DNA of 40,268 bases, taken from NCBI GenBank assembly GCA_041891375.1, contig JASDUA010000002.1, positions 1-40,268 of the forward strand, given 5' to 3'. The notes below the pieces were generated by a model. It was not told where the DNA came from. It saw only the letters and a list, made by a program, of their open reading frames with translations, and searched no databases. Origin of the DNA: Patescibacteria group bacterium. GTDB lineage: Bacteria; Patescibacteriota; Gracilibacteria; BD1-5; UBA2023. Both the position numbers and the translations under genes were made by a program. Each line of letters starts with the position of its first letter. The first letter of the stretch is position 1. Shown here piece by piece: positions 13,725 to 38,531 of this stretch.

Positions 13725-13740
13725 AACGGGGAGAAAGGCG

Positions 13741-17782: not shown

Positions 17783-18247
17783 ATGGCAACCGCCAAAATA
17801 ATCCGGAACCTCGAATCCGAAGATTTCCGGATCGACTCCAGCAAATGGAGAACCCTGCCGAACGCCTTGGCCGACTGACGCCCCGTCAAGATCAACCCCT
17901 TCGGCGACGTATTCGAAGTCACGCTCCCCGACGGAACCCCGGTACAACTCTTCACTCATGCGGCGGCGCTGCGGGAGGTTGCGGCCGCGAACAAGCGTTT
18001 GCCGACCTTGTCGGTTTTCCGTTCCCTCATGAAGGTCACGAACTCGTCGGTCAACCGGCTCAACCTTTCCGGATGCCTCGTCGGCGAAAGCTTCGAAGAA
18101 GTCGGAAGCACCGCCTATTACTGGGCGCACCGGACGAGCACCACTTCGGCACCCGGATTCCGCATCCACCTCGGTACGGGCATCTGATTCGAAGTCTTCG
18201 ACTACGACCGTTCGTTCTGCTTCGCCGTCCGCTGCGTGGAAACGTAG
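17783..18247 (+). CDS. DUF1566/Fib_succ-like (C-type-lectin-fold) small protein, 154 aa, two in-frame TGA (17876, 18185)
   Basis: Sequence MATAKIIRNLESEDFRIDSSKWRTLPNALAD-[TGA]-RPVKINPFGDVFEVTLPDGTPVQLFTHAAALREVAAANKRLPTLSVFRSL...STAYYWAHRTS...HLGTGI-[TGA]-FEVFDYDRSFCFAVRCVET, TAG stop. Very high GC3 in this frame. Paralogue of 26126-26620. The antisense ORF 17768-18169 is a shadow. Confidence 0.6.
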
Positions 18248-18266: not shown

Positions 18267-19409
18267 CTACCACGCGTCCGTTCAGTGTCCGTCCAGAATT
18301 CGCTCGAGTTCCTCGTCCGTCCTCTGGGCGTACACCGCGCTGTAGGCGATGTTCCGGTGGGCGAGCTGTTTCTGGACGGCCGTGATGCCGCCCTTCTCGT
18401 TCATCAGGTAGCCGACGTGGTGACGGAAGAGGTGCGGGTGGATCCGCTTCGCCTCGGACTCCCCGAGCGCGTCCTCGGCCAAACGTCGGACAACCGCGAA
18501 CAGGGCCCGCGACGACATCCGCCCGTCGGCGTCTGGGTTCCGGTTCTTCGCCTGGTGCGGCACCGCCAGGAACAGCGGCGCGCAGTCCCCGCCGTACGCG
18601 GCGGCGTCCTTCTCCCGTTCCGACGCCAGGTAGAGCTCCACGGCCCGGGCGGCTTCCGAGGACATCACAACGTCCCTCTCCTGGCTGCCCTTTTCTTTCA
18701 CCCGCACCAACCGGCGCCCGGCGAACTGGGAAACGTCGAGCTTCGCGACGGCCGACACGCGCAACCCCGTGCCGATGAGCAGTTTGTAAACGGCGAGGTC
18801 GCGGGCCGGCCTCGCGTCGGACCGGGTTTCCATCACCCCGAGGTCCGTCCTCTTCCTGTCCCTTCGGATCCGCGTGCCGGCGAGCCCGCGCGCGGCGGTC
18901 TCGAGGCGGATCACTTCCTTCTCGGTGAGGCGCTTGGCCTGCAGGACGGGCACGTCGAACCGCTTTACGCCCTGCATGGGGTTCCCGCCAGCGACGAGCG
19001 GCGGCACCTGGGATGCGACACACTTCGCGAAGGTGCGGAGGTGGTCGATCTTCCTGTTCAGGCTCCGGGCCTACCAGCGCGGTTCGCCCGCCTTCTTCCC
19101 ACGCCCGGGGACGCGGACCGTTTCCTTGGCCAGAGTCTGGACGAAGAGGTTCGAACTCGCGCGGTTCCACCTCCCGACGTCGTCGGACCCGAAGGCCCAG
19201 ACGAACCAGGAGTAGAAGAGCTCGAGGTCCTCCTTCTTGTACCGGAGGGTGGCCGGGGCTCCGGTCGCGAAGGTGGTCAGGTACTCGACCATCCACCATC
19301 GGAGGCTCCGGCGCTCCCCTCCCCCCTCGGCTACGAGGGCCGGTACGGGGGCGTCGGATGAGAATTTCGCCGGGGATGCGGCAGCGGACGCCTGCGGGAG
19401 GTTCGCCAT
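18267..19409 (-). pseudogene. Tyrosine recombinase/integrase interrupted by an in-frame TAG (19071-19073) between the core-binding and catalytic domains
   Basis: Track ORFs 19071-19409 (LRWWMVEYLTTF...LRYKKEDLELFYSWF) and 18282-19007 (GTGLRVSAV, HLFRHHVGY, LAHRNIAYSAVYAQ) are in the same frame. The junction reads ...AGEPRW-TAG-ARSLNRKIDHLRTFAKC. First 3' stop is TGA at 18282, with TAG 5 codons later at 18267. Confidence 0.65.
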
Positions 19410-19421
19410 GGTTCCGCTGCC

Positions 19422-19706
19422 TCAGCGCCGCGGGACGTCGGCATGGAGCGTCACACCGCCGTCCCATTCGAGGACGACGGACGCTCCGCAGGCCAAACAC
19501 GCCGACGGCCGGCCGTCGTGCGAGTCGCCCGGCAGGCGTTCCTCGCCGCGATGCCCGCACGAAACGCACTCGTAGACGTACAGCACCGGGGCTTCCGGCG
19601 CCGCTTCCCCTCCCTCCGGTCCGCCGGATGCTCCGGCGTCGGAAGTGGGCTGTCCGCCCGATAAATTCTTATCGGCAACGGATTGGACGTTTTCGTTTTC
19701 TACCAT
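19422..19706 (-). CDS. Zinc-ribbon protein (94 aa); its TGA stop is in frame with the integrase ORF 12 nt downstream
   Basis: Sequence ...VLYVYECVSCGHRGEERLPGDSHDGRPSACLACGASVVLEW... (CxxC..CxxC). With TGA=Gly it would read ...DVPRR-G-GSGT-MANLPQ... straight into the integrase N-terminus. Confidence 0.5.
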   Translation of the reverse strand: MVENENVQSVADKNLSGGQPTSDAGASGGPEGGEAAPEAPVLYVYECVSCGHRGEERLPGDSHDGRPSACLACGASVVLEWDGGVTLHADVPRR

Positions 19707-19881: not shown

Positions 19882-22473
19882 ATGGACCAGCTTGCGGGAG
19901 GTAAGAAGGACGGTTTCGAAATCTGGTTGTCGGATCGGCCGAAGTGGTTGCAGACCGCGGCCGCAAGACTGATCGAGGAAAGGAAGCACCCCGATCAGGA
20001 CGGAATCCGGGCATTGGCGGACCTCTGCCATGCAGAGGCCAACGGCACCACTGGGGTCGTCTTTCTGCCGGTCCCACCGGGTTTCTTCGACGGAGCGGTG
20101 GTCGGATCCCCTTTCAAGCTTGTGGGGATCGACAAGGTCGTTGGCGTGAACGCGCTAAAGGATAACGCGAGCCTCGATTTCGACCACTCGGACATCTCGG
20201 TCGTCTTCGGGATGAACGGAGCGGGAAAGTCCGGTTTCGCTCGGCTCCTGAAACACGCGTGTGGCGCCCGGCACAAATCCGACCTTCTTCCGAATGTTTT
20301 CAAGGCGGAACGCGTCTTGCCGGCTTGCGAGATCACGGTCTCTACCGGAACGGGGACGTTCTCGTATCCGTGGGAGTCCGGATCGGAAAGCGTTCGCGCG
20401 CTCCGGACCGTGAGCGTTTTCGACAGCCTCGCGGCCGAGTCCTACGTCGATTCGAACAACGAAGCGTCGTACGAGCCCAGGCGGATGCGCTTCATATCGT
20501 CGCTGATACGCATCTGCGACGCGGTTTCCGACGAGTTGGCGGCCCGTAAAGCTGCCATGCCGTCGAAGTTCCCGACCGTGCCGCTCGAGCATTCGGCGAC
20601 GAAGTCGGCGGCCTTCGCCTCCGGCATCCGGGCCGACACGAAACCCGAAATGGTCGAAGCCGCTTGTTCCTGGTCGGCGGCCGATACCGACTCGCGGCAG
20701 GAAACCGAGCGGTCCCTCAAACAGCACGATCTGGCCGAAAGAATCAAGCGCCTCGGTCTGGACAGGCGCACGTTCGACCTGTTGGCCGGAACCTGCAGGA
20801 CGTTGAAATCCGGCACGTCCGACGAAATCGCGGCGAGGTTGTCGGCCGCCAAGTCGGACGCCGAAACGAAGCGGAAGGCCGCGACCGATGACGCTGCCAA
20901 GGTGTTCGCCGGCGCTTCGCTCGACGGCATCGGCAGCGCTTCATGGAAGCTGCTCTGGGAACAGGCGAGGCGGTATTCCGAAGAGGCCGCGTATCCGGAG
21001 AAGGCTTTCCCCGCTACCGACGACGGCGACCTCTGCGTCCTTTGCCACCAGCCTCTCGAAGAAGGCGCCCGGCTGCGCATGGCGGCTTTTGAATCGTTCG
21101 TCAAAGGAGGCTTGGAATCCGCGGCCGGAGCTGCGGAAAAGTCGTTTTCCGATGCTCTCGGTGCCCTTCCGGTCCTCCCCGACCGGGCGAAGTGGGATCT
21201 CGACATGGATTTCCTGAAAGTCGAGAAGGGAGCGGGACAACGCCTTTTCGATACCCTCGAGAACCGAATCGCGGCACTCTCGAAAGCCCCGGACCCCGCG
21301 ATTCTTCCGGTAGCGGACTGGACCGCGGTCGATGCCGCGTTGGCCGCGAAATCCGAGACGTTGGCCAAGGAAAAGGCCCTTCTCGACGAACTGAGCAGGG
21401 ACGGGAAGAAAGCCGAGCTGGAAAAAGCGCTCAAGGAGCTTTCCGCACGGGAGTGGTTGTCGCAACAGAAAGTGGCCGCCTACGGTGAAATCGCCCGCAA
21501 GCAGGCGATCCGTGCCATAGAGCAGGCGGAGGCGCTGGCGAAGACCAACGCGCTCACCATCAAGAAGAACGAGCTCGCCGAGGAAGAACTGGCGGCGGGC
21601 TACAGGGACCGTTTCCTGTCCGAACTGCGGGCGCTCGGAGGAAGGCGCCTGAGGGTCCGACCCGAAGCCGTCCGACAAGGAAAGGGGAAGGTCAGTTTCA
21701 AGTTGGCGATCCAGGGGGCGGCGGTCCCGGCGTCCGCGGGGGCAGTCCTCAGCGAAGGGGAGAACCGCATCGTCGCGCTCGCCGCGTTCCTTGCCGACAT
21801 CACCGGATCGGGACAGCCGACGCCGTTCGTCTTCGACGATCCCGTTTCGTCCCTCGACCAGGAGTTCGAAGAACGCGTGGTCGAGCGCCTGGTGAGCCTC
21901 GCGGAAACCCGCCAGGTGATCGTCTTCACCCACAGGCTGTCACTGCTCGCGCTCATTGAGGAGGAAATCGAGGCGCGCGGACGTCGCCCGGAAGGGAAGG
22001 CGCCGGTCCTTTCGGTCAAGACCCTCAAGCGCGTAGGAAGCTGGTCCGGCGCGGTGGACGCGATGGACGCCAGGCACCAGAAGCCGAAGTCCGGTTTCGC
22101 CAATCTGCGCGACCAACAACTACCGAGGATTAGGAAGCACGCGGCGGAGGGTCGCGTCGCCGATTACGAGTCCGCGCTGAAAGCCGCTTGCGGAGACTTC
22201 CGGATCCTGGTGGAGAAATCGGTGGAGAAGGAGCTCTTGAAAGGGTTGGTCGAGCGATTCAGACGGTCGGTTCAGACCCGGCATATCAGAACGCTCGCGA
22301 ACATCACGGTCGAGGACTGCGTCCTCATCGACGAACTGATGACCAAATATTCGCGGTTCGAGCACTCCCAGTCCGACGATCTCCCGGGGATCCTTCCGGA
22401 GCCGGAAGAGCTGGCTGAGGATCTGGACAAGGTCATAAGCTGGATAGATGAGTATTCCAAACGGAAGGCGTAA
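19882..22473 (+). CDS. AAA_13-family ATPase, RloC/PrrC-like (Rad50-like ATPase with CxxC zinc hook in a coiled-coil insert)
   Basis: Motifs: Walker A GMNGAGKSGFARLLK, coiled-coil insert with LCVLCHQPLEE, Walker B FVFDDPVSSLDQEFEERV, VFTHRLS. C-terminal ~180 aa are of unknown function (FRRSVQTRH, SRFEHSQS). ATG at 19882 (the track's 19774 is a TTG extension). TAA stop. No internal TGA. Confidence 0.65.
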   Translation: MDQLAGGKKDGFEIWLSDRPKWLQTAAARLIEERKHPDQDGIRALADLCHAEANGTTGVVFLPVPPGFFDGAVVGSPFKLVGIDKVVGVNALKDNASLDFDHSDISVVFGMNGAGKSGFARLLKHACGARHKSDLLPNVFKAERVLPACEITVSTGTGTFSYPWESGSESVRALRTVSVFDSLAAESYVDSNNEASYEPRRMRFISSLIRICDAVSDELAARKAAMPSKFPTVPLEHSATKSAAFASGIRADTKPEMVEAACSWSAADTDSRQETERSLKQHDLAERIKRLGLDRRTFDLLAGTCRTLKSGTSDEIAARLSAAKSDAETKRKAATDDAAKVFAGASLDGIGSASWKLLWEQARRYSEEAAYPEKAFPATDDGDLCVLCHQPLEEGARLRMAAFESFVKGGLESAAGAAEKSFSDALGALPVLPDRAKWDLDMDFLKVEKGAGQRLFDTLENRIAALSKAPDPAILPVADWTAVDAALAAKSETLAKEKALLDELSRDGKKAELEKALKELSAREWLSQQKVAAYGEIARKQAIRAIEQAEALAKTNALTIKKNELAEEELAAGYRDRFLSELRALGGRRLRVRPEAVRQGKGKVSFKLAIQGAAVPASAGAVLSEGENRIVALAAFLADITGSGQPTPFVFDDPVSSLDQEFEERVVERLVSLAETRQVIVFTHRLSLLALIEEEIEARGRRPEGKAPVLSVKTLKRVGSWSGAVDAMDARHQKPKSGFANLRDQQLPRIRKHAAEGRVADYESALKAACGDFRILVEKSVEKELLKGLVERFRRSVQTRHIRTLANITVEDCVLIDELMTKYSRFEHSQSDDLPGILPEPEELAEDLDKVISWIDEYSKRKA

Positions 22474-22506: not shown

Positions 22507-23670
22507 CTACTTCCCCTGCCCCTTCGGCAGCGAAAGCTTCAGGAACCGCTTCCCGATCCGGAACCCCTTCCGGGTTTCCGGCGATATCCGCTCCGTCGCG
22601 TACTTCTTCCGGATGCGGAAGGCGTCGAAATGCCCGAAGAGGCCCAGGTACGAATTCACCGAAGCGAGGAACGCCGGCCGGAGGCTTTCGGGCAATCCCT
22701 CCTTTCCGGCCAAGGCGTTCCAGTGCGCCGCGCGCTCCGAGAAATTCCCCTTCGTCCGGTTTCCGAGATAGGTCCGGTAAGGCTTGACGTAGCCCCCGAG
22801 GAACGGGAACCCGTCGCGGACGGAACGGAGCATGATTTTCTTCGGATGGAGCTGGAGCCTGAGGACGTCCCTGAGGAAATCCCGGATCGTCGGAATGCTC
22901 GCTTCGAGCACCGAACGGTCTTCGTGCATCAGGAGGAAGTCGTCCACGTACCGGCCGTAGTGCCGGATTTTCAGCGTCCGCTTCACGAAATCGTCGAGCG
23001 GGTGGAGGTAGAGGTTCGCGAATATCTGGCTCGTAAGGTTTCCGATCGGGAGGCCGACTCCCGTAGGGGAATGGAAGAGGCTCTTCCCTCTCGGAAGGTC
23101 CGCCCAGTCCGAACGGTTTCACCGGATGACGCAGTTCTCCGTCGGGTCGTTGGCCAATATCTTCCGGATGAGGAAGAGAAGCGTCTCGGGATCCGCGCCG
23201 CGGTATTTCCTTTCCACCGTCCGTTCGAGCATCGCCAGGAGTATCCGCCGGTCGATCGACATGAAGAATCCCGATATGTCGAGTTTCAGGACGTGCGCCT
23301 CCTTCGTGAAGGTGTCGGTGCAAGACCTGGCGAAATGTTCCGCGCGACGTATGCCGAACAGCGCGCCCTTCCCCACCCTGCAGGCGTACGAATCGTGGAT
23401 GAAAGTCCGGTCGATCGCCTCGCCGATTTCGCCCACGACGTAGTGGTGCACGACGCGGTCACGGAAGTCTCAGGCGAATATTTCCCTTTTCACCGGCCTG
23501 TCTACTATGAAGGCGACGCACCGGCCGACTTCGTACCGGCGTTCGACGATCTCGTCGTACAGTTGGAACAGCTTGCTCTCGTAGTCCATTTCGAAATCGG
23601 TGGCGTTGCGGGTTTTCCGTTTGTTCTGCCGGCAGTCGTAGTACGCGCGGAAAAGGTCGGCGGCTTCCAT
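22507..23670 (-). CDS. Diversity-generating retroelement reverse transcriptase (387 aa) with two in-frame TGA (23470, 23119)
   Basis: Track pieces 23470-23670, 23119-23451 and 22507-22986 share one frame. Junctions: REIFA-[TGA]-DFRDRVVHH and NCVIR-[TGA]-NRSDWADLP. Motifs: GLPIGNLTSQIFANLYL (DGR-type xGxxxSQ motif), YGRYVDDFLLM (YxDD). TAG stop. Confidence 0.85.
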
Positions 23671-23729: not shown

Positions 23730-23906
23730 GAGGCAGCGGACCGATAACCCGTTCGCCCGGTTATTGTTGTTAGCGGGAATCACTCCGTTAGTAGTCGAGA
23801 GATTCACGTTGTTCCCGTTCGTCCCGGTAGTAGACGCGGCCCAGTAGTTGCCGTTCGTACCCTGGTTATTGAACGCGGCGGTCGAGTTGTTACGGTTGCC
23901 GGCGAG
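23730..23906 (-). repeat. DGR template repeat (TR), 177 nt
   Basis: Aligns without gaps to 24537-24713 and 32739-32915. Asn-rich when translated (NGVIPANNNNRANG; AAC/AAT codons). Lies between avd and the RT. All about 17 differences from VR1 fall at TR positions that are T on the + strand, which is A on the coding strand. Confidence 0.85.
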
Positions 23907-24009
23907 ACGGAAAGCGGCCGCTTACGGCGGAGGCGTCCGGCTTCCGCTGGGGAGGGAGGACGCCTTCGGATTTCGTACCCCCGGCCTACGGCCGGAGGTG
24001 GGCCGCCAA

Positions 24010-24411
24010 TCAGGACTGGGGCTCGCCCGGGCGCTCCGTGGAGTCGCCAGGTTCCGGCCCGCGTGGTCCCGGGAGGGATTTGTCCCAGTGGAACAGTTGC
24101 TTCGAGATGCCTTCGATGTGTTCGTTCAACCGGACGAACTTGTCGACCGCGATGAGCTTGAGGTCCTTCGTGAGCCGGAGGTACAGCCTGACGGTTTCGA
24201 GGCATTCCCTCGCCTCCGTGACGTGTTCCTTCCTCCTGGCCATCGATCCGTTCGCCCGGTACACGGCGCGGATCAGGTCGAGGAGTTCCCTTTTCACGCT
24301 CTCGCCGAGCGTGTACTTGTATTCCCTGGGAAAGGTTTTGACGAAGGCGAAGGCTTCGACGAGGAAGTCGTAGCTTGCCCGGTAGACGGGAAGCCGGTCG
24401 TAGGTGGCCAT
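24010..24411 (-). CDS. avd: DGR accessory variability determinant (Avd; four-helix-bundle / 23S rRNA-intervening-sequence-type protein)
   Basis: Sequence MATYDRLPVYRASYDFLVEAFAFVKTFPREYKYTLGESVKRELLDLIRAVYRAN...RLYLRLTKDLKLI. Position between target and TR is canonical. First stop is TGA at 24010; TAG at 23986 applies if TGA=Gly (+7 aa). Confidence 0.75.
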   Translation of the reverse strand: MATYDRLPVYRASYDFLVEAFAFVKTFPREYKYTLGESVKRELLDLIRAVYRANGSMARRKEHVTEARECLETVRLYLRLTKDLKLIAVDKFVRLNEHIEGISKQLFHWDKSLPGPRGPEPGDSTERPGEPQS

Positions 24412-24527: not shown

Positions 24528-26021
24528 CTAATTCTTGAGGCAGCGGACCGATAACCCGAGCGCCCGGGTATTGTGGTTAGCGGGAACCACTCCGTTAGTA
24601 GTCGAGAGAGTCACGTTGCGCCCGTTCGTCCCGGTAGTAGACGCGGCCCAGTAGCCGCCGAGCGTACCCTGGTTATTGAACGCGGCGGCCGAGGTGTTAC
24701 GGTAGCCGGCGAGCGGCAGGCGGAGCGTGGTCATGAACTTGTTGGCCGTGGTTTCCACGTGCCAGGCGGCGTCGCAAAGGGTTACGTCCGGCGATACGGC
24801 CTTGATGGCGTCGCACCACTCCTTCTGCGTCGGGACGTGGTAGCCGGACTGGCAGGGGCCCTGCATCGCGGCCGGGGATCCGAGCGACGAGTAGGTTCCG
24901 ACGGCGGTTGTCGAACCGGTGCCTCACCAGAGGTTGTCGTCCTGGACCGAGAGCCAGTCATACGGCGCGGTGCCTTTCGTTATGAACCGGGTTTCGGAAG
25001 CCGCCGTGGCGGCGGCCAGCGGTCCGGCGACCGTGGTTCCGGTGGTGACGTCCTCGTTCCTTCCCCACTGGTAATAGGCTCCCATATACGCCTTCTGCGC
25101 TGCCGTCGGACCGCCGGCCGCGGTGGCGTCGGTGAGCGCTACCGACTGTCCGGCGTACGCGGTGCTCGCGCCCACGTTGCAGGCCGCCCAATGCTGGTTC
25201 GATCCGGTGAGGTAAATGTCCGGAGCGTCGCAGCCCGGGTACTGGCTCGCCCCGCCTCCGGAAGAGGCCGAGCTTGAGGAAGACGACCCGGAAGTCCCGG
25301 TCGCGCCGCCGTCGACGAGCGCGCCGGTTCCGGTCGGGGCCTTCACGAGGCCGAGGACGGCTCCCGCGGAAACCTGTGCCGCGGTGGGCGCCGGGAAATT
25401 GCCGGAGACGGCGACGAGGCCTGTGGCCGGAGCCGTGCCGGCCACCTGGAAGAAGGAGGCGGAACGGTTCCTTCCGGAGGCGGTCGGGGCGAGCGCGGCG
25501 TCGACGGCTCAGACGGCGAGCGATTTCGAATCGTACGCGGCGAAAGAGTCCGGAAGGAAGGAGCCCAGCGACAGGAACCCGCCCATGGGCGGACGGCGGG
25601 AGAGCCGGAATTTCTCCGGATTGAGCTTGAGCTTCGTCCAATCCGGATTGCCGGCCGAGTAATTCGTGCCGGCCTGGTTCCAATCACCGCCGGTGAGCGT
25701 CACCGGGGAGCCGTCGACGTACGCCACGGCCGCTCCCGTGAGCGCGGCGGCGGCGTCGTGGACGACGTAGTAGCGCGGCGAGTTGTCGGTGACGGCCGAC
25801 TCGGAAGAAATCGCCGTATATACCGACCGGACGTTGGCTTTCACGGCGGCGTCCTTCGCGTCCTGCGAGTAGCCGGAAAGGGCGAGGAAGCCTATCGTTG
25901 CCAGAATCGCGAGGATCGTGATGACGACGATGAGTTCGGCAAGGGTGAATCAGGAAAGGATCGATGCTTTGGCGGCCTTGGCGGGCGGCCTGGAGGCCGG
26001 CGCCTCGCGTTTCGCGTCCAT
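24528..26021 (-). CDS. Type IV pilin-like protein with C-terminal Fib_succ_major (FISUMP)/C-type-lectin-like domain; DGR target 1 (497 aa, three in-frame TGA)
   Basis: Four track pieces share one frame and are joined by TGA at 25950, 25509 and 24924. N-terminus: MDAKRE...KASILS-[TGA]|FTLAELIVVITILAILATIGFLAL (prepilin G|FTLxE motif). Ser/Gly linker. C-terminal motifs: GYHVPTQKEWCDAI, LPLAGYRN, GGYWAASTTG, LSVRCLKN. TAG stop at 24528. Confidence 0.8.
24537..24713 (-). repeat. DGR variable repeat 1 (VR1), at the 3' end of pilin-like target 1
   Basis: Same length as the TR. Mismatches fall only at TR adenines on the coding strand, e.g. TR ATT/AAC/AAC/AAC versus VR1 GTT/CAC/ACC/CTC. The 3' 21 nt (GGGTTATCGGTCCGCTGCCTC) are identical to the TR. 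Confidence 0.85.
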
Positions 26022-26125
26022 GTTCGGAAAAAAACGGGTTAAAAATCCGTGGAACATCCTAGCCGGAAATGCGCGGGATGCAAGGCGGACCCCGCAGGCA
26101 TTCCCCTTTTCACCAGCGGGAACGC

Positions 26126-26620
26126 TTACGCGGCGACCGCCACCGGCGCGGCGCATCCGCTCGGAAGCCTTATTGACGAAGGTCCGTCCGTACCGTTCCT
26201 CACGGCCGGGAACGTCTTCCGGCCCCTTGAGCCCGCGGCGACGTCGCCGACCCAGCGGTAGGCGTTGGCCCTTTGGTCGTAGAACGCGCCGTGGGCGGAG
26301 TGCCGGAATCAGGAAAACGCCCTGCGGAAAAGGACGCGGTCCTCGTCGGACCGACCGGAGAACGCCACTGCGGCGGCTTCGAGCTCGGCGGCTGCCGGAA
26401 GGCGGAGGCCCGCGGACTGCAGTTCCCGGACCGCGGCGGCATAGGTGAAAAACTGCTCGGGTGCTCCGTCGGGAAGCAGGACCTGCCAGACGTCCCCTCG
26501 GGTGTTCGCGAGGATCGGGCGTCCGAACGCGGAGGATCAGGGAACGGCGGTCCATCCGGACGAATCAATCCGGAAAAGGCGGAATCCGGCGAATGCCGGG
26601 TCTGGTTTCGTTTCTGGCAC
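26126..26620 (-). CDS. DUF1566-like small protein (about 164 aa, GTG start uncertain) with two in-frame TGA (26537, 26309)
   Basis: Not in the track because two TGA split it. Sequence ...FRLFRIDSSGWTAVP-[TGA]-SSAFGRPILANTRGDVWQVLLPDGAPEQFFTYAAAVRELQSAGLRLPAAAELEAA...RRAFS-[TGA]-FRHSAHGAFYDQRANAYRWVGDV..., TAA at 26126. Clear paralogue of 17783-18247. The other two minus frames are Arg/Pro-rich. Confidence 0.5.
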
Positions 26621-26698
26621 GTGGGGTCGCGCTTGAAGGGGTAAGGCGTCCTGATGCTATCCGCGGAACCCTTCGGGTCAAGCCTGGCTTGGTACGGG

Positions 26699-28255
26699 CT
26701 AATCGAGGGCCAGCCCGATCGCCCCCACCATTTCACCGAACGACTCCGGAAATTTCCGCGTTACGGCGCCGGCCAGCGTCTTCAGGAAATCGTCGCGCTC
26801 GAGGCCGAGCTCCTTCCCCGCCGCGTACACCTCTTTGTGCTTGCCCGCCTTCGCTCCCGTATCGAGGGCTTCGGCGACCGTATCGGGATCGGAACCCACT
26901 AATGCGGCGAGGTCGTTGGCGATTTCCTTTCCTTTCCGCATGAGCCACGCTTCGGGCCATACGTCGCCCGGAAGGTAGGCCATCCGCGCTTTCATCCAGT
27001 CGTCGAAATCCTCTTCCGGATTCTCGGCCATCTTGCGGGCGTGGCCGACGTTGTCGCCCTCCTTCTTCCTTTGGTCGCCGTCGAAAACCGCCAGAACCGG
27101 ATGGTCCCCGTCCCGCAGGTACGTCGCGGCGAGCTGTCTGGCGAGGCAGTTCGCCGAGCCGATTTCGGTTACGGTGATCCGCGTCCGCTGTTGGGCCGAC
27201 AGCGCGGCGCAGACGAGCGCTTTGGCCACGTCGTCCTCGACCAGGACCTCGAGCTCCTTGCCGGCGACCCCTCCGAGTTTCGAAAAGGCGAACTCCGATG
27301 AGACCGAATCGAGGATCCTCGTCCGACCGTTGACGGTCTCTACGAAGTACCTGGCGTCGCTCGGGAGGCGCTCGAAGATCTCTTTCGAGTGCGTCGTGCA
27401 AATCACTTGGGCATTGAGCTTCAAGCACGCGTCCTTGAGCTTGTCGACGAACCGCCGCTGGGCTTCGGCATGGAGCCCGAGCTCGATCTCGTCGATGACC
27501 AGCAAGGCTCCCTTTCCGCAGTCGTACAGGACGGAAAAGATCTCGAAGAGGGCGTTCTCCCCCGCTCCCATGTTGAAGCCGGAATACACTGTCTCGCCCA
27601 CCTTCACGATGGGAAGGTTGTACTTCGAATATTCGAGGTACCGGAAACTGTCGTACGTCTTTCCGAGGATGGATCCGACGATGTCCTTAACCTCGTCTTC
27701 CCATCCTTTCTGCACCGCGTCCTTGAACGCTTTTGAGTACGACCGCGACTGGCTCCGCTCGGCGTGCGGGACGATCCGGTCGATTCCGAGGAACGCTACG
27801 TTCCGCCGTACCCGGTCCGCGTAGTCGTTCCATTTGCCGCCCCGCTTCTTCGATCGCTTCTGCCAGCCGACGCCCACGCCGTCCGGGAGGGTGTCGCTCT
27901 TCTTCCACTTGTCGTAGGCGATCCCGTACTTGATTTCGATTCCTTGCGGGGACAGTTCCTCCGGATGCTGGACGAAAAAATCCGAGAACGTGTAGTACGT
28001 CGTCTTCCGCTTGGGCAAGCGGTATCCGTCCCTCCTGTTGTGGTAGGCGCAGCATGCGAGGGCGAGAATGGTGGATTTTCCCGCGCCGTTCTTGCCGGCT
28101 ACGGCGACGATCGGGAAGTTGACCGGGAGGTCGAGCCGCGTCAGGCCACGAAGTTCGCCGGTAACGAGGTTGATGTTCCGAAGGAGCGCTTTGGTGTTGT
28201 CGTTGCAGAACCACTCGCGAAGCTTCTTATCGGTCTTTGTCTCGCTGTATTTCAT
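26699..28255 (-). CDS. OLD-like ABC ATPase with C-terminal Toprim/DUF4435-like domain (518 aa)
   Basis: Motifs: Walker A VAGKNGAGKSTIL, Walker B LLVIDEIELGLHAEAQRRF, CTTHS, then ELEVLVEDDVAKALV and LAVFDGDQRKKEG (Toprim-like E...DxD). TAG stop. No internal TGA. Confidence 0.7.
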   Translation of the reverse strand: MKYSETKTDKKLREWFCNDNTKALLRNINLVTGELRGLTRLDLPVNFPIVAVAGKNGAGKSTILALACCAYHNRRDGYRLPKRKTTYYTFSDFFVQHPEELSPQGIEIKYGIAYDKWKKSDTLPDGVGVGWQKRSKKRGGKWNDYADRVRRNVAFLGIDRIVPHAERSQSRSYSKAFKDAVQKGWEDEVKDIVGSILGKTYDSFRYLEYSKYNLPIVKVGETVYSGFNMGAGENALFEIFSVLYDCGKGALLVIDEIELGLHAEAQRRFVDKLKDACLKLNAQVICTTHSKEIFERLPSDARYFVETVNGRTRILDSVSSEFAFSKLGGVAGKELEVLVEDDVAKALVCAALSAQQRTRITVTEIGSANCLARQLAATYLRDGDHPVLAVFDGDQRKKEGDNVGHARKMAENPEEDFDDWMKARMAYLPGDVWPEAWLMRKGKEIANDLAALVGSDPDTVAEALDTGAKAGKHKEVYAAGKELGLERDDFLKTLAGAVTRKFPESFGEMVGAIGLALD

Positions 28256-28449
28256 ACGCTTGAGCGGTTACGTCCGGAATATTCGTTTGATCTTACCAGG
28301 GTTGGGAAAACCGCCTGGACGACTCGGCTCTCGTGGGGAGGAAACGTCGCAGTTCGCCAAATGGTAAGCACGGAACCGACCCCGTCAAGTTTGGCCGTTT
28401 CCGAATCCGCAATCGTCCCGAGAACGTACCTTTTCGATACGTTCCTCAT
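28252..28449 (-). CDS. Possible 65-aa ORF whose TGA overlaps the ATG of the OLD-like gene (ATGA); low confidence
   Basis: Sequence MRNVSKRYVLGTIADSETAKLDGVGSVLTIWRTATFPPHESRVVQAVFPTLVRSNEYSGRNRSSV. Composition looks like protein, but GC3 is only moderate and the region looks intergenic and carries operator-like repeats. Confidence 0.25.
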   Translation of the reverse strand: MRNVSKRYVLGTIADSETAKLDGVGSVLTIWRTATFPPHESRVVQAVFPTLVRSNEYSGRNRSSV

Positions 28450-28455
28450 ACGTTC
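28422..28455. promoter_or_regulatory. Operator-like inverted plus direct repeat upstream of the OLD-like gene
   Basis: GAACGTA (28422-28428), 9 nt, TACGTTC (28438-28444), 4 nt, TACGTTC (28449-28455). Confidence 0.3.
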
Positions 28456-28462
28456 ACCGGTT

Positions 28463-30124
28463 TTATTCCGTACCTTTACCGGGTATCCACTCCGCGCGCT
28501 CCGGCCACTCGACGCCGAACCGGTCGCAGGCCTTCGCGAACGCCGCGAGCACGTCCTCGGCGTGCGCGGCGAACCGAGCGGTTTCGACGACCATGCCCGC
28601 CCGCTTCGCGGCGCGGCCCGAGGCGCGGACTTCGGATTCGAAGGCGTAAGGGAACGCCTCCGCGAGGGCGGCGGCGGACCGCTCCGCCGCTTTCAGGAGT
28701 CCGGCGGGCGGCTTCCGGTTCCTCGTGGCCATGACCTGGACGAGCTCCGGGACGCCCCCTTCCCCGGGCGCCAGTTCGAAGTGCCCGGCCAGTTCTCCGG
28801 ACGGATGGAACGCCGCGAACACCGCCCGTCTTCCGGCCAGGAGCTCCGGCAGGTACCCGGCCAGGCAGTTCGAAGCCTCGTCGGCCTCGGCGATGAGCCG
28901 GCCAGCGGTGCCTATCCGCCTGGCCTCCCACCCTCCCCCGCAGCCGAGGGCGTCGGGGAACGGCGACGGGATCGGGTCTTCGGGAGGCCAGACTTCCCTC
29001 ACGGCCTCCCGGACGGCCGCGGTTTCCTTGCGCGCCCAAGCGCGGCCCGCGGCCGGAAGGTCGGCCGGGTGGTGCCGGCAGAGGGCCCAGAGGACCGCCC
29101 ACGTTCCCGCGCCGAGACGGACCGTTTCCCCGTGGAACGTCCCGGCGAACGTCCTTCCCCCGACGGCGGGGTGCTTCCCCACCTGCTCGGCGAGGTCGGA
29201 AAGCCAGGCCGTCCCGTGCCGGTCCGGAAGCTCGTACGGGCGGCGGCGGAGCGCCTGCCATACGGCCGCCGAGGCTTCCGCGAGCGCCACGCGCCCTTCA
29301 TGGTCGCCGGCGTCGCGAAGGATGCCGGCCGCCCAGCGTGCCGCCTTCAGGAAGCGGCCGAAGTCGGGGGCGCGGGGCCTCCGTTCCGGCGGTACGAGCG
29401 AGAACGCCGCGGCGTAGAACGCGGGGTCGGTCTCGAAGTCCGCCACGGGATACCCACGGGCGCGCGGATGCCAGGCGCCGACGGCCGCGAGCGACCGGAC
29501 GACGTTGGGCTCCGCCCGGAGCTCCCTGCAGAGCGCGGGCAAGAGTTCCGCCCGCGCGTCGATCGCGGCGAGCACGCGTTCCGCCGGTTCCGGAGTGCCG
29601 GCCGCCAGGCCGGCGCACGTCCAAGGCAGGAGCCAAGGGAAGACGGTGACGGCCTGGACCCTCTCCGGGCGCCCGGAGAGCAGGGCGTACTCCCTCCCGG
29701 TCAGCGGGCGCCCGACCGGGAGCTTCAGGAGGTCCCGATCCAGGGCGCCGAGGAACTCTTCGACGGCTCCCGCGACGCGGGCTGCGGCCGGGTCGGTCCC
29801 GTCCGGACCGCAGGCGGCATAGGCGATCCGCAGGGGCTCGAGGATCGGGTCGAAACCCGAGTAGGGTCCGGCGGCGGCCGCCTCCCTGACCGAGGCGCCG
29901 AGGCTCCCGGCGCCGGGTTTCGGACGGTGGCGCCCGTACGACACGGTTTCGTCGGCGGCATGGAAGAGGAAGGAGGACTCCGCGGCCCCGGGCCCGCTCC
30001 ATTCGACCGTAAGCAGCCGGCCTGGAATCCCGACGGCCCGGAGGACGTCCGCGCCCTCGAGGCTGCGGACCAGGCCGGAAACCTTCCCCGAACGGACGGC
30101 GAGGTACTTGCGGCCCGCGTTCAC
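28463..30124 (-). CDS. 553-aa cytoplasmic protein, C-terminus possibly PcfJ-like
   Basis: GTG start at 30124, preceded by GGGAGGGA. The real frame is the C-terminal 553 aa of the track's 854-aa ORF (the N-terminal 300 aa are an Arg-rich shadow of the vWA gene). The stretch EASNCLAGYLPELLAGRRAVFAAFHPSGELAGHFELAPGEGGVPELVQVMATRNRKPP resembles my recollection of the PcfJ-like domain. TAA stop. Confidence 0.55.
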   Translation of the reverse strand: MNAGRKYLAVRSGKVSGLVRSLEGADVLRAVGIPGRLLTVEWSGPGAAESSFLFHAADETVSYGRHRPKPGAGSLGASVREAAAAGPYSGFDPILEPLRIAYAACGPDGTDPAAARVAGAVEEFLGALDRDLLKLPVGRPLTGREYALLSGRPERVQAVTVFPWLLPWTCAGLAAGTPEPAERVLAAIDARAELLPALCRELRAEPNVVRSLAAVGAWHPRARGYPVADFETDPAFYAAAFSLVPPERRPRAPDFGRFLKAARWAAGILRDAGDHEGRVALAEASAAVWQALRRRPYELPDRHGTAWLSDLAEQVGKHPAVGGRTFAGTFHGETVRLGAGTWAVLWALCRHHPADLPAAGRAWARKETAAVREAVREVWPPEDPIPSPFPDALGCGGGWEARRIGTAGRLIAEADEASNCLAGYLPELLAGRRAVFAAFHPSGELAGHFELAPGEGGVPELVQVMATRNRKPPAGLLKAAERSAAALAEAFPYAFESEVRASGRAAKRAGMVVETARFAAHAEDVLAAFAKACDRFGVEWPERAEWIPGKGTE

Positions 30125-30366
30125 GGCGCGTCCCTCCCGTCCCGGTTGATCGTCGCCCGAACCTTCCCGTCCTTGCCCCGGACGAACTCGGAGCCGGGGG
30201 GAAGCCGGAACAGGAACGCGCGCAGGAGTTCGCCGACGTTGGCCGCCACGTCCGCCAGGAGCACGACGCGGCCTCCACGGCGGTTCCTCCATACGGGCGC
30301 CCGCGTCCCCTTCCGGCACCATCCGACCGGGACGAGACCGATCGCGACCAGCAGGATCCTGAACAT
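30121..30366 (-). CDS. 81-aa single-pass membrane protein ending in a TGA that overlaps the next start (GTGA)
   Basis: Sequence MFRILLVAIGLVPVGWCRKGTRAPVWRNRRGGRVVLLADVAANVGELLRAFLFRLPPGSEFVRGKDGKVRATINRDGRDAP. Very high GC3. If TGA=Gly, it would continue for hundreds of codons in a Ser/Pro/Arg-rich off-frame. Confidence 0.55.
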   Translation of the reverse strand: MFRILLVAIGLVPVGWCRKGTRAPVWRNRRGGRVVLLADVAANVGELLRAFLFRLPPGSEFVRGKDGKVRATINRDGRDAP

Positions 30367-30374
30367 GGCGGCCC

Positions 30375-31031
30375 CTACCGGATCCGGACCGGGTAGCGGC
30401 CGTACTGGACGACGGCGGCCCCGGGAGCGGACGAAAAGTAGCGGGTCCAAAAGGCCTCGACCGCCGCGTAGTCCTTCCCGCCCGCGCCGGCGACGTACAC
30501 CTTCGCGCCGGCGAGCGCCGCGGGGGCCGCGAGGTCCTTCTTCCGTCCCGACGCCAGGTCGAAGCGGCCGGTCTCGAGCATGTCCGAAAGGACCACGAGC
30601 GTCTTCCCCGAGTCCGGGGACTGGGAGAACGCCTGCGACGACGCTTCGACGGCGTCGACGATCCTGGTCGCCTTGTCCGGCGACTTCTCCGCGCGCCCGA
30701 GGATCCCGCCGAGGGCGGCCAGGGCGCCCTCTTCGAACTCCTTCCTCCGCTTCCCGTCTGCGAAGCGCCGGCCGGTCGGCGCGGGAGCTTCGGCGTCGAA
30801 GTCGCGGACCCACGAGGCCCGCTCCTTCCCTCCGAGCGCGGCCACCACCAGGCGGTCCCCCGGACGCACGGCCCGGACGACGCCCTCCACGCTTTCCCGG
30901 TACGCGGCCCGTTCTTCCGCGCCCACGCTCGACGACGCGTCGACGAGCACCACGTACGTGCCGGCCCACGCCGGCGAGGCCAGCGCGAGGCACGCGGCGG
31001 CCGCGCAGGCGGCCATTTCCATTGCATCCAT
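30375..31031 (-). CDS. Secreted von Willebrand factor A (vWA)-like protein, 218 aa
   Basis: Signal peptide MDAMEMAACAAAACLALASPAWAG, MIDAS-like VLVDASSSV (DxSxS), LVVLSDM. SD AGGAG upstream. TAG stop. Confidence 0.7.
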   Translation of the reverse strand: MDAMEMAACAAAACLALASPAWAGTYVVLVDASSSVGAEERAAYRESVEGVVRAVRPGDRLVVAALGGKERASWVRDFDAEAPAPTGRRFADGKRRKEFEEGALAALGGILGRAEKSPDKATRIVDAVEASSQAFSQSPDSGKTLVVLSDMLETGRFDLASGRKKDLAAPAALAGAKVYVAGAGGKDYAAVEAFWTRYFSSAPGAAVVQYGRYPVRIR

Positions 31032-31077
31032 TTCCTTCGGCTCCTATCCGATTACCGTCTTTTCACAATTCGCTATC

Positions 31078-31097
31078 CGTACGTTTCACGTACGTTT
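31078..31097. promoter_or_regulatory. Tandem CGTACGTTT repeat (11-nt period) in the spacer before the vWA gene
   Basis: CGTACGTTT at 31078-31086 and 31089-31097. On the coding strand this reads AAACGTACGtgAAACGTACG, about 50-65 nt upstream of the vWA ATG. Confidence 0.3.
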
Positions 31098-32165
31098 TCC
31101 GTCCGCATTCCAATCCCTCCCGATCTCCCCGACGGCCCTCCGGATATCGCCGGCAGGAGGGTCCGGCGGCGGATCGAGCGGCAGGGGTTCGAAGGCTTCC
31201 TCCCCCACCGCGGAGAGCATGTAGTCCGGCGGCAGGCAGCCGGGCGGGCGGTTGGCGAAGTTGTGGTCCCGGTAGGCGGCGACCATCCCGAGGACGCGGT
31301 GGACCGTTGCCGAAGCTTCGTCCCGCGCTTTCGCCCAGGCTTCCGCCCGACGGGAAGCCAACGCGGCGCGCTTCTTCCAGAGCCGCTCCCGCTCGTCCCG
31401 GAGCCGGTCGCACCGCGCGGCGAGCCTCGAGGCCTCGGGATCGGGATCGGCATTCCATGCGGCGAAAGCCGCCGCCGCCAGGTAGCCGAAGCACTGGACG
31501 GCGAGGAACGCCGCCGAATGCCCCACGAGCTCCCCCGCCCCGTCGGCCGCGAGCTGCACTTCCCGAATGGAGGCGAACCCCCAGGCGAAAGCCGCGACCC
31601 CGACGTTCGCGAAGGCGACGGCCCAGCCCGGCAAGCCGCCGGGACGGCCGGCTCCCCTCTGCCTGGCCCAAGTGCCGGTCGCCTTCGCGACGGCGAAGAG
31701 CGACGCCGCGAGGAAAAACGAGTACCAGAGCTTCTCGTTCAGCAGGAACCGGACGGCCGAGGCGGCGAAGTCGCCGAATCCCCCCTCCCCCGCCGGTTCC
31801 GTCGGGACCGGGCCGGCCATCCCGAAGTAGTCGAGCAACCCGTACGCGAGGGCCCATTCGCCGCAGACCGCGACCGCTGCGAACGCCGCGAAGGCCCATC
31901 CCGGCAACGGCTTGCGGTACCGGCGTCCGCCGCATTCCCGCAGGAACTCGGCCTCCGTCCGCACGAGTTCGTCCGAGGTTTCGCGGAGGGACAGGTCGAG
32001 CCGGTTAATCTCGGCCCGGTCCCGCTTGGCCTCCGCGTTCGCCTTCGAGGCGAGTTCGAAGCGCTCCCGGTTGCCCGGGGCGACGAGCCGGGCGGCGAAG
32101 GGCTCGCGGACCTTCGTTCCCGTGGCCGCCGGGCGGAAGCGCCGGAGTTCGAGCACGTCAGCCAT
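31086..32165 (-). CDS. 359-aa membrane protein: N-terminal coiled coil, about 4 TM helices, C-terminal coiled coil
   Basis: Sequence MADVLELRRF...EAKRDRAEINRLDLSLRETSDELVRTEAEF. Hydrophobic segments: GWAFAAFAAVAVCGEWALAYGLL, LWYSFFLAASLFAVA, GWAVAFANVGVAAFAWGF, AFLAVQCFGYLAAAAFAAW. Then RCDRLRDERERLWKKRAALASRRAEAW. SD AGGGAGG upstream. First stop is TGA at 31086. Confidence 0.65.
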   Translation of the reverse strand: MADVLELRRFRPAATGTKVREPFAARLVAPGNRERFELASKANAEAKRDRAEINRLDLSLRETSDELVRTEAEFLRECGGRRYRKPLPGWAFAAFAAVAVCGEWALAYGLLDYFGMAGPVPTEPAGEGGFGDFAASAVRFLLNEKLWYSFFLAASLFAVAKATGTWARQRGAGRPGGLPGWAVAFANVGVAAFAWGFASIREVQLAADGAGELVGHSAAFLAVQCFGYLAAAAFAAWNADPDPEASRLAARCDRLRDERERLWKKRAALASRRAEAWAKARDEASATVHRVLGMVAAYRDHNFANRPPGCLPPDYMLSAVGEEAFEPLPLDPPPDPPAGDIRRAVGEIGRDWNADGKRT

Positions 32166-32729: not shown

Positions 32730-34178
32730 TTAGTCCCTGAGGCAGCGGACCGATAACCCGTGCGCCCGGTTAGTGTATTTGGCGGGAGACACTCCGTTAG
32801 TAGTCGAGAGATTCACGTAGTACCCGTACGTCCCGGTAGTAGACGCGGCCCAGTAGGAGCCGACCGAACCCTGGAGAGTGAATGCGGCGGTCGAGTTGTT
32901 ACGGTAGCCGGCGAGCGGCAGGCGGAGCGTGGTCATGAATTTGTTGGCGACGGCTTCGGCGTGCCAGTTGGCGTCGCATACCATCGCCGCCCCGCCGTTC
33001 TGCGTCGGGGATACCGCGACGATCGCGTCGCACCATTCCTTGGCCGTGGGCACGTGGTATCCGGCCGCGCAGGGTCCCTGCATCGCGGCCGGGGATCCGA
33101 GCGAGGAGTAGGTTCCGGCGGAAACCGTGGAACCGGTGCCTCCCCAGAGGTTGTCGTCTTGGACGGAGAGCCAGTCGTACGGAGCGGTTCCGTTGGTGAT
33201 GAACCGGGTTTCGGAAGCGGCGGTCGCGGTCGCGAGGGGTCCGGCGACCGTGGCTCCGGTCGTCACGTCGAGGTTCCGTCCCCACTGGTAGTACGCGCCC
33301 ATGTAGGCTTTCTGCGCGGCGGTCGGGCCGCCGGCGGCGGTCGCGTCGGCGAGGGTTACGGACTGTCCGGCGTACGCGGTGCTCGCGCCCACGTTGCAGG
33401 CGGCCCACTTCTGGCCGTTGGAGAGGACGACGTCCGGCGTGTCACAGCCGGGGTAGGCGGCGAACCCCGGGGAAGCGGAGCCGTCGACGAGCGCTCACGT
33501 CAGCGCGCCGGGGAACCCGACGAGTCCGGGGATTCCGCCACTTCCGGCCGGGAAATTACCGGAGACGGTGACGAGACCGGTGGCCGGGGCGGTTCCGGCG
33601 ACCTGAAAGAAGGAGGCCGAACGGTTCCTTCCGGAAGCGGTCGGGGCGAGCGCCGCGTCGACGGCTCAGACGGCGACCGATTTCGGATCGTACGCGGCGA
33701 AAGAGTCCGGAAGGAAGGAGCCCAGCGACAGGAACCCGCCCATGGGCGGACGGCGGGAGAGCCGGAATTTCTCCGGATTGAGCTTGAGCTTCGTCCAATC
33801 CGGATTGCCGGCCGAGTAATTCGTGCCGGCCTGGTTCCAATCACCGCCGGTGAGCGTCACCGGGGAGCCGTCGACGTACGCCACGGCCGCTCCCGTGAGC
33901 GCGGCGGCGGCGTCGTGGACGACGTAGTAGCGCGGCGAGTTGTCGGTGACGGCCGACTCGGAAGAAATCGCCGTATATACCGACCGGACGTTGGCTTTCA
34001 CGGCGGCGTCCTTCGCGTCCTGCGAGTAGCCGGAAAGGGCGAGGAAGCCTATCGTTGCCAGAATCGCGAGGATCGTGATGACGACGATGAGTTCGGCAAG
34101 GGTGAATCAGGAAAGGATCGATGCTTTGGCGGCCTTGGCGGGCGGCCTGGAGGCCGGCGCCTCGCGTTTCGCGTCCAT
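32730..34178 (-). CDS. Type IV pilin-like protein with C-terminal Fib_succ_major/C-type-lectin-like domain; DGR target 2 (482 aa, three in-frame TGA)
   Basis: Pieces 34107-34712 (tail), 33666-34001 and 32730-33392 share one frame. TGA at 34107 (G|FTLAE), 33666 and 33495. The N-terminal about 165 codons are identical to target 1; the C-terminal two thirds diverge (AAGYHVPTAKEWCDAI, LPLAGYRN, GSYWAASTTG, LSVRCLRD). TAA stop. Confidence 0.8.
32739..32915 (-). repeat. DGR variable repeat 2 (VR2), at the 3' end of pilin-like target 2
   Basis: Gap-free 177-nt alignment to the TR. Most mismatches fall at TR adenines on the coding strand, but about 5 do not (e.g. ATT>TCT, GCT>GCC, AAC>AAA). Confidence 0.75.
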
Positions 34179-38523: not shown

Positions 38524-38531
38524 GGCGGCCC

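Follow-up and report, generated by a model that had tools for sequence, protein, structure and literature searches.

The 40,268-nucleotide stretch analyzed here (the window) is contig JASDUA010000002.1 (forward strand, positions 1 to 40,268) of assembly GCA_041891375.1, from a Patescibacteria group bacterium placed by GTDB in Gracilibacteria, BD1-5, UBA2023. It carries a diversity-generating retroelement (DGR) with two pilin-like target genes, and the frames of the DGR, its targets, and several neighboring genes are interrupted by TGA codons. Probably, this contig represents a genomic island, or a mobile element, from a guanine-plus-cytosine (GC)-rich Gracilibacteria (BD1-5/GN02) bacterium that reads UGA as glycine (code 25), and it would have acquired standard-code genes. 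In its native genes, ~8% of the glycine codons would then be TGA, with TAA or TAG as terminators; besides an active DGR and two pilin targets, this native set would include genes for small pilin C-domain paralogs, a protein with a Zn ribbon, a secreted repeat protein, and small proteins. Defense and conjugative-plasmid genes would fill the left 14 kb and be interleaved with native genes further on, with at least part of this imported set coming from standard-code, GC-rich Betaproteobacteria. A code-25 cell should be able to translate imported genes, since internal UGAs never occur in genes of the standard code; termination alone is affected. Given that both gene classes are under purifying selection and that UGA-containing genes fail in a standard-code cell, only a UGA-decoding host fits both.

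The pilin-like gene at 24528-26021 (minus strand; target copy 1) is, as the initial annotation had proposed, a single frame broken by TGAs alone: it has 497 codons, three TGAs (25950-25952, 25509-25511, and 24924-24926), and a TAG stop. It encodes a type IV prepilin leader followed by a hydrophobic helix, a lineage-specific N-domain, and a Fib_succ_major C-domain (PF09603, E 7e-10). The leader TGA falls at the -1 position of the KASILS/FTLAELIVV cleavage motif (KASILS-[TGA]-FTLAELIVVITILAILATIGFLAL), where homologs have Gly, Gly, and Ala, so the assignment of this codon to the cleavage-motif glycine stands. The -1 residue of type IV prepilins must be glycine or, rarely, alanine, and this position is a TGA in three genes. 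With TGA read as glycine, the protein has the features by which type IV pilins are recognized, namely, a leader ending in Gly, an F-T-L-x-E sequence, and a hydrophobic helix; the Pfam N_methyl model gave no report on the pilin with X at the -1 position.

The three paralog alignments proposed alongside the leader were also reproduced. The TGA at 24924-24926 is opposite GGA both in pilin copy 2 (32730-34178, minus strand; TGAs at 34107, 33666, and 33495; stop TAA) and in L001, an independently assembled contig from run SRR17423263 that has the same gene order as the window at 81-97% DNA identity. The TGA of copy 2 at 33495-33497 is opposite Gly in copy 1 and in four homologs, and the TGA at 17876-17878, in a small protein encoded at 17783-18247 (plus strand; second TGA at 18185), is opposite Gly in its paralog. 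Of the pilin-family alignment columns, 11 contain a TGA; in 9 of these the remaining sequences have Gly (with Ala as well in one), in 1 they have Ser, and in 1 Pro, while none shows Trp or Cys. The paralog of the 17783-18247 protein (26126-26563, minus strand; start uncertain; TGAs at 26537 and 26309) is itself related to the pilin C-domain, has an identical second copy at 34283-34720, and is 100% identical in L001, both TGAs included. The alignment between the small paralogs and the pilin C-domain was so weak that its TGAs at 26309 and 26537 could not be scored; the TGA at 26537 is opposite Asn in the paralog.

The DGR reverse transcriptase (RT; 22507-23670, minus strand; 387 codons) contains TGAs at 23470-23472 and 23119-23121, both of which are conserved in L001. 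The column of the second TGA holds Gly in 114 of 120 homologs. At the first, Ala is present in 105 and Gly in 9 of the 120, and the five closest homologs, mostly named Gracilibacteria, all have Gly. A solved bRT structure was uninformative, having Leu opposite the first RT TGA and an unaligned stretch at the second. Tabulated over the RT and pilin genes together, the residues opposite TGAs were mostly Gly, and in the pilin columns never Trp.

Where L001 differs from the window at these codons, it has GGC and GGA in the pilin and GGT in the Zn-ribbon gene (14849-15211, plus strand; 120 codons; TGAs at 14876 and 15137, the latter being the one replaced); the other positions are TGA in both contigs. 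No indels were observed across or beyond the TGAs in a comparison of the TGA-containing genes of the window and L001. The ratio of nonsynonymous to synonymous substitution rates (dN/dS) between the two was 0.11 over RT codons 68-387, which follow the first TGA, and 0.08 over pilin codons 25-140, which follow the leader TGA. A 64-codon gene (14373-14567, minus strand) whose TGA at 14442-14444 is kept in L001 had a dN/dS of 0.10, and its 22 codons past the TGA showed 9 synonymous and 0 nonsynonymous changes. Since the diverged L001 contig, from another run, carries the TGAs as well, they are not consensus errors; the 100%-identical Logan contigs L002 and L004 also hold them.

These comparisons matter because frame length does not help here. 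Coding density under code 11 and code 25 was compared and proved uninformative, with 99% of the window lying in some open reading frame (ORF) of at least 150 amino acids either way; in DNA of 64% GC, long frames free of TAA and TAG are common on both strands, so that ORF length is no evidence. The case for recoding therefore depends on homology, ortholog comparison, and dN/dS.

The DGR provides a functional argument. Besides the RT, it comprises a template repeat (TR; 23730-23917, minus strand), the accessory protein bAvd (23986-24411, minus strand; PF22296 at residues 14-112, E 2e-14), and two variable repeats (VRs), VR1 at the 3' end of pilin copy 1 (24537-24723, minus strand) and VR2 in pilin copy 2 (32739-32925, minus strand), so that the RT, Avd, and TR/VR pair with adenine-specific mismatches that define a DGR are all present. 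VR1 differs from the TR at 15 of 46 adenines and at 0 of 124 other positions; across the VRs compared, 15, 16, and 20 of 46 adenines were altered, against 0, 4, and 0 of 124 other bases. In addition, a T-versus-G difference between the TRs of the window and L001 variants, which does not involve adenine, reappears in the respective VRs, implying that the DGR has worked since the variants split. By these sequence signatures, the DGR is demonstrably active in both variants, and its activity requires a full-length RT, that is, reading through its two TGAs. The Avd gene has a single TGA (24010-24012), seven codons ahead of its TAG, which could be an ancestral stop. Like the DGRs of candidate phyla radiation (CPR)/Patescibacteria genomes with pilin- or adhesin-like targets, this one combines an RT, Avd, a TR, and two adenine-variable VRs at the 3' ends of surface-protein genes; unlike them, its RT itself depends on UGA being read as Gly at two codons, and its two targets lie in a tandem 8.2-kb repeat unit.

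Taken together, the alignments, the selection on codons beyond the TGAs, and the function of the DGR exclude sequencing error, pseudogenes, Trp, and Sec as explanations and indicate that UGA is translated, with Gly the best fit. At the level of sequence, we consider the assignment of UGA to Gly in the TGA-using genes of the window well supported. A recount gave 27 in-frame TGAs in 3,447 codons of TGA-using genes (duplicated genes entered once each, except that both pilins were counted), near the 22 to 25 in ~2,700 codons of the initial annotation, and every TGA that it had listed is in frame where it was placed. This includes the seven at 15551-16735 in a signal-peptide repeat (propeller-like) protein (15314-16843, minus strand; 509 codons). 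The proposed Gly decoding held for the DGR, pilin, Zn-ribbon, and small-protein genes, but the repeat-protein TGAs were uninformative. A word-index search gave one distant match, and an exhaustive search with a TGA-free 161-amino-acid segment retrieved repeat proteins; the columns opposite the seven TGAs are variable, so these codons add nothing. The public 143-amino-acid fragment P0122 ends at the repeat-protein TGA at 15551.

A second class of genes lacks such codons altogether. Twelve genes, totaling 6,757 codons, have no internal TGA; TGA accounts for 0 of 495 Gly-type codons in these genes versus 27 of 339 in the TGA-using genes (Fisher P 1.5e-11, for classes that were set after the fact). 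The TGA-free set consists of the Gabija genes, a type III restriction-modification (R-M) pair, a DrmD-like SNF2 helicase, PDC-S06, HEC-04, SRAP, ArdC, RadC, and two hypothetical genes, and thus mostly of recognized defense genes (PADLOC) or conjugative-plasmid genes. The Gabija, type III R-M, PDC-S06, and HEC-04 genes all match PADLOC models. GajA (2-2098, plus strand; 5'-truncated; E 9e-289, with the match starting at profile position 29) and GajB (2101-3903, plus strand; E 1e-252) both stop on TAA. They are followed by the type III restriction enzyme (Res; 4108-7101; REase_III, 8e-288), the type III methyltransferase (Mod; 7112-9019; MTase_III, 1e-202), and the SNF2 helicase (9061-11907; DrmD, 4e-214), all on the minus strand and free of internal TGAs. 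The PDC-S06-type AAA ATPase (19882-22473, plus strand; 863 amino acids; 3e-304) and the HEC-04-type ATPase (26699-28255, minus strand; E 2e-45) also contain no TGA.

Several of these genes have close relatives on betaproteobacterial plasmids. The Res-Mod-SNF2 block (~8 kb) is 79.4% identical at the DNA level to Cupriavidus taiwanensis plasmid NZ_CP016951, and its proteins end at the same residues as those of the plasmid. Window positions 1-53 match, at 98% identity, a site in Alicycliphilus pALIDE02 and Aromatoleum plasmid 1 that lies ~760 bp away from the istA gene of an IS21-family insertion sequence (IS); since GajA lacks its first ~28 profile positions next to this IS21-family end, the Gabija gene appears to have been interrupted by the IS. 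The best plasmid matches of PDC-S06 are in Ralstonia and Burkholderia (51% amino acid identity). Between the window and L001, PDC-S06 has a dS of 0.009 and its flanking genes a dS of 0.26-0.37; from this and from the near-identity of the 27-32 kb block across runs (see below), defense genes appear to have been swapped recently between diverged copies of the element. The SNF2 gene, with a dN/dS of 0.05 between window and L001, is under purifying selection. Glycine codon preference is nearly equal in the TGA-free and TGA-using genes and so gives no date for the transfer. The same junctions recur in L001, which was assembled independently and is diverged, so the mosaic is not the product of a chimeric assembly. 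The description of the contig as GC-rich is thus correct as far as composition goes (60-72% GC along the whole window, 64% overall), but for a mosaic with an 8-kb block 79% identical to a Cupriavidus plasmid, the 64% is not simply the GC content of the host genome.

Of all the details of the contig, the way in which the imported genes terminate is the most interesting. RadC (13741-14220, plus strand) matches PF04002 at residues 39-157, corresponding to profile positions 2-120 of 121, and stops on a TGA (14218-14220) two residues past the JAB domain; reading through would add 168 nonconserved codons. Its dN/dS is 0.16 ahead of the TGA and 0.74 behind it, where frameshifting indels also occur. 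ArdC (anti-restriction; 12858-13724, plus strand) stops on a TGA (13722-13724) 19 residues past its peptidase domain, followed by the motif GGGAGAAAGG and the ATG of RadC, and the SRAP peptidase (12116-12760, plus strand; PF02586 at residues 1-212) stops on a TGA (12758-12760) three residues past the profile match, with 23 extra codons on read-through. The statement in the initial annotation that all the recoded genes terminate in TAG or TAA accordingly applies to the TGA-using genes, and there by construction only; it fails when extended to RadC, ArdC, and SRAP, which end on TGA at their Pfam ends, so that UGA is not absent as a terminator. In L001, positions 5622-7420 hold ArdC, a TGA, six codons, and RadC in a single frame, which code 25 would turn into an ArdC-RadC fusion; in the window, ArdC and RadC are in different frames.

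Mod and SNF2 present another arrangement. Both close with TGA-TAG within the same nine bases, TGATAGCCC (window 7109-7114 and 9058-9063), whereas the Cupriavidus homologs end on TAA-CCC (Mod) and TGA-TCC (SNF2). TAA or TAG makes up ~0.6% of the window's trinucleotides, and a direct back-up stop in two of the five TGA-ended genes is therefore improbable by chance (~4e-4 by our own estimate, from two genes). The TAG that now stands directly behind the old TGA stop of Mod and SNF2 may have been gained in a UGA-decoding host; RadC, ArdC, and SRAP would have undergone no such repair and would carry unselected C-terminal tails. We thus read the TGA-ended RadC, ArdC, SRAP, Mod, and SNF2 genes as imported and as no evidence against Gly decoding, and we infer both the direction of transfer and the tolerance of read-through tails. 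GC-rich donors end most of their genes on TGA. The contig would also show the genetic code at work as a barrier that genes can cross in one direction only, a natural experiment in which imported genes appear in three states: those that end safely on TAA or TAG, those with a TAG directly behind their TGA, and those whose TGA is followed by a long unselected read-through tail.

The contig carries no marker gene, but its sequence relatives point, indirectly, to the Gracilibacteria as the probable host lineage. The closest named RTs are from Candidatus Gracilibacteria (55-57% identity). A scan of GTDB genomes recovered five pilin-relative loci (49-66% identity) in three metagenome-assembled genomes (MAGs), with in-frame TGAs in 5/5, and relatives of the pilin N-domain (58-66% identity) are found in MAGs of 56-59% GC. 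In one of these GC-rich relatives, the CAYZVC01 MAG (contigs of 383 kb and 210 kb), the GGDGT motif of NAD kinase is encoded as G-TGA-DGT, and PBP1A has TGA at Gly positions. The GlyRS of this MAG has its nearest named counterparts in Gracilibacteria, including oral GN02-873 (71-73% identity), and GlyRS relatives at 80-82% identity span 41% to 56% GC. Based on the named RTs, the pilin relatives in GC-rich MAGs, and the code use and GlyRS of CAYZVC01, the host would, by inference, lie in a GC-rich branch of code-25 Gracilibacteria. GC-rich Gracilibacteria GlyRS genes did not co-occur with the window's samples, being found in different runs. A Gracilibacteria genome of 45% GC (L003) shares the arrangement seen here, encoding a protein with both Fib_succ_major and Avd matches, followed by an RT gene.

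DNA of this kind is easily miscalled: public gene calls cut the RT and pilin at their TGAs, one relative is labeled Peribacteria, and another was given Trp. The two CAYZVC01 contigs (CAYZVC010000002.1 and CAYZVC010000004.1; our L007/L008) are labeled uncultured Candidatus Peribacteria bacterium at NCBI, a label that does not fit their code use and GlyRS relatives; the label, and any table-11 annotation derived from it, is probably wrong. The ENA entry for RT homolog P0004 has W at two sites where its relatives have G (IKWKREHWIWLPRNK versus IKGKREDWTGLPRSK) and gives the impression of a code-25 gene to which table 4 was applied.

Reassignment of UGA in bacteria is usually attributed to AT pressure that removes UGA stops. 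Candidatus Hodgkinia cicadicola, a tiny insect endosymbiont of the Alphaproteobacteria, offers a precedent for exceptions. A Codetta survey reported a GC range of 0.21-0.53 for the clades with UGA as Gly and treated low GC as the usual background of UGA reassignment, Hodgkinia being the GC-rich exception (PMC8629427); the sole closed BD1-5 genome has 28.9% GC (PMC6851277). The window and Hodgkinia (up to 58% GC) both keep a reassigned UGA in GC-rich DNA, contrary to the AT-pressure/codon-capture view (PMC8629427), but UGA is Trp there and Gly here. Hodgkinia is also not known to have imported defense genes like those of the window. Like other code-25 sequences of Gracilibacteria (BD1-5/GN02) and Absconditabacteria (SR1), the window has UGA at conserved Gly positions and TAA or TAG stops on UGA-using genes. 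It differs from those clades in composition (60-72% GC here and 56-59% in the nearest MAGs versus the published 0.21-0.53), in that about two-thirds of its modeled codons are in UGA-free genes, and in that three genes end on UGA. A GTDB-based study applies table 25 to class JAEDAM01, which unites Absconditabacterales and BD1-5 (10.64898/2026.05.24.727570); the window lineage would be a GC-rich branch within the known code-25 clade. The expectation of the initial annotation that a GC-rich genome with UGA as Gly would be unusual holds against the published range, although MAGs of 56-59% GC with TGA in housekeeping Gly motifs were already public; our literature search found no paper that discusses GC-rich code-25 genomes, though such genomes have been deposited. 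What the 64% GC contig and its 56-59% GC relatives add is that the reassigned code has been kept, at ~8% of Gly codons, despite GC pressure expected to purge sense TGAs. The code-25 Absconditicoccaceae phage RSA-ATP1, in which 60% of ORFs contain UGA (PMC13059738), and related phages and prophages resemble the window in being mobile elements with internal UGAs in part of their genes; in contrast, no phage structural genes were seen in the window, and its UGA-free genes include ones with DNA-level relatives on betaproteobacterial plasmids, some of them ending on UGA.

Several observations weigh against a code-25 island with imported genes. Scans of the window and of seven related loci (L001 included) found no tRNA gene, and hence no tRNA-Gly(UCA); prfB was not recovered either. 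Exact-protein lookups for host flanks returned short Logan contigs from which no flanking housekeeping gene was recovered; scans of IMG/VR gave no PDC-S06 match and RTs only 23% identical, and two scans of JGI metagenomes gave no match. The seven repeat-protein TGAs have no homology support. In the GC-rich relative chromosome CAYZVC01, the GlyRS, TyrRS, NadE, and PNPase genes are also TGA-free, so that a lack of TGA alone is no proof of foreign origin, and the TGA-TAG argument is based on two genes. The 98%-identical IS21-family end indicates a very recent exchange with Betaproteobacteria, and RadC, ArdC, and SRAP retain TGA at their homology-defined ends (RadC and ArdC in both variants), unlike what would be expected of genes fully adapted to code 25. 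The element could reside in a standard-code betaproteobacterium, with the TGA-containing genes as dead cargo from a code-25 patescibacterium. This would account for the left block with 79% DNA identity to a Cupriavidus plasmid, the IS21-family end, the Ralstonia and Burkholderia matches of PDC-S06, the TGA stops, and a GC content like that of Burkholderiales. However, standard code would halt the RT at residue 66 and the pilin at residue 23, and dead cargo would not be expected to show dN/dS values of 0.08-0.11 across and past its TGAs without indels, a DGR active in both variants, or a prepilin -1 Gly kept as TGA in three genes; we regard a betaproteobacterial host as very unlikely.

We also consider it unlikely that UGA has a dual role, coding for Gly within the DGR, pilin, and small-protein genes but terminating RadC, ArdC, and SRAP. 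Such a role could arise through competition between a UCA-anticodon tRNA and release factor 2; alternatively, a suppressor tRNA borne by the element outside the window could act in a standard-code host, as in stop-codon-recoded phages. As to the reason, a GC-rich lineage may keep terminating activity beside tRNA-Gly(UCA), or the element may shuttle between a betaproteobacterial host and its code-25 epibiont. If the element did shuttle, both cells could use its UGA-free, UGA-terminated entry and defense genes, and only the epibiont its recoded genes. RadC and ArdC retain a TGA at the end that homology defines in both variants, despite a divergence of 15-19%, the sequence past these TGAs is unconserved and its frame differs between the variants, and the TGA-free, TGA-terminated genes are of a type expressed early after DNA entry (anti-restriction and defense), all of which a dual role would explain. 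Yet two neutral TGAs would be kept by chance about one-third of the time at such divergence (our own estimate), a comparison of base context around sense and stop-like TGAs revealed no distinguishing pattern, and neither the window nor L001 carries a tRNA gene; moreover, since pilin relatives are found in chromosomes with TGA in housekeeping genes, ordinary code 25 suffices. An assembly artifact, in the TGAs themselves or in the juxtaposition of recoded and standard genes, is extremely unlikely: although the contig ends in a repeat and its near-perfect 6.7-kb tandem duplication could be an assembler loop, L001 shares the order SNF2...ArdC-RadC...integrase, PDC-S06, RT-Avd-pilin, HEC-04 and the same TGAs, and both the gene order and the TGAs recur in 100%-identical Logan contigs of a third assembly. 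Finally, we assign next to no probability to UGA being Trp (code 4), selenocysteine, or cysteine. UGA as Trp is the commoner bacterial reassignment and is known from one GC-rich genome, that of Hodgkinia (PMC8629427), and RT homolog P0004 shows W at the TGA columns. Nevertheless, all ortholog and paralog replacements of TGA are by GGN, never by TGG or TGY, the aligned columns are Gly, an Rfam scan of the window gave no family at or above threshold, and the two W residues of P0004, opposite G in its relatives, are what table 4 yields when applied to a code-25 gene.

With a code-25 Gracilibacteria host as the preferred reading, the gene order of the window can be summarized as follows. From the left, the IS21-family end (1-53) cuts into GajA and is followed by GajA and GajB, the type III restriction enzyme, methyltransferase, and SNF2 helicase (4108-11907, minus strand), and SRAP, ArdC, and RadC (12116-14220, plus strand). 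Then come the 64-codon gene (minus strand), the Zn-ribbon gene (plus strand), the secreted repeat protein (minus strand), a 128-codon gene (minus strand), and a small pilin-C-domain relative (plus strand), followed by a tyrosine integrase (minus strand), the PDC-S06 ATPase (plus strand), and the DGR, in which the RT, TR, Avd, and pilin target 1 with VR1 are all on the minus strand. The second small pilin-C relative, the HEC-04 ATPase, and three hypothetical genes in a stretch of 70-72% GC follow. The right end consists of pilin-like target 2 with VR2 and a repeat of the block that follows target 1.

The hypothetical genes, all on the minus strand, encode a 619-amino-acid protein (28463-30322), a 218-amino-acid signal-peptide protein (30375-31031), and a 373-amino-acid membrane protein (31044-32165) with a TGA 13 codons ahead of its end. 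A "PcfJ-like" label for the 619-amino-acid protein was dropped when neither Pfam nor PADLOC matched it. At 70-72%, the GC content of 28000-32000 and 36000-40000 exceeds that of the remaining window, and neither Pfam nor PADLOC gave a match for the genes there. Six sequencing runs contain the 27-32 kb block at 98-100% identity. Runs in which the contig is represented are SRR24078314, SRR17423263, SRR21120501/2, SRR21041034, and ERR12320433. The block at 26699-32165 recurs at 34856-40268, as part of a repeat in which 25390-32111 equals 33547-40268 at 99.8% identity, giving a tandem unit of 8.2 kb. The 3' halves of the pilin genes (24536-25241 versus 32738-33455) are just 82% identical, a divergence that extends far beyond the 188-nucleotide VR. 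Either the cassette was truly duplicated, with another pilin allele in the second unit, or the 8.2-kb repeat is a loop made by the assembler. Contig L015, from another run, departs from the window at ~32704, without the second repeat copy.

L001 also differs from the window in gene content. At the position of the window's SRAP gene (12116-12760), it encodes a 610-amino-acid LRV-repeat protein (L001 3613-5445), and the seven-TGA repeat protein is not present in L001; on these two differences, the element is modular. The tyrosine integrase (18267-19706, minus strand) has a TGA four codons ahead of its end (18282-18284) and an in-frame TAG at 19071-19073, where L001 has TCG (Ser). It also contains an insertion of ~95 codons (about 19341-19625) that encodes a Zn ribbon, includes one TGA (19422-19424), and is missing from L001. 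The integrase may be inactive in the window variant.

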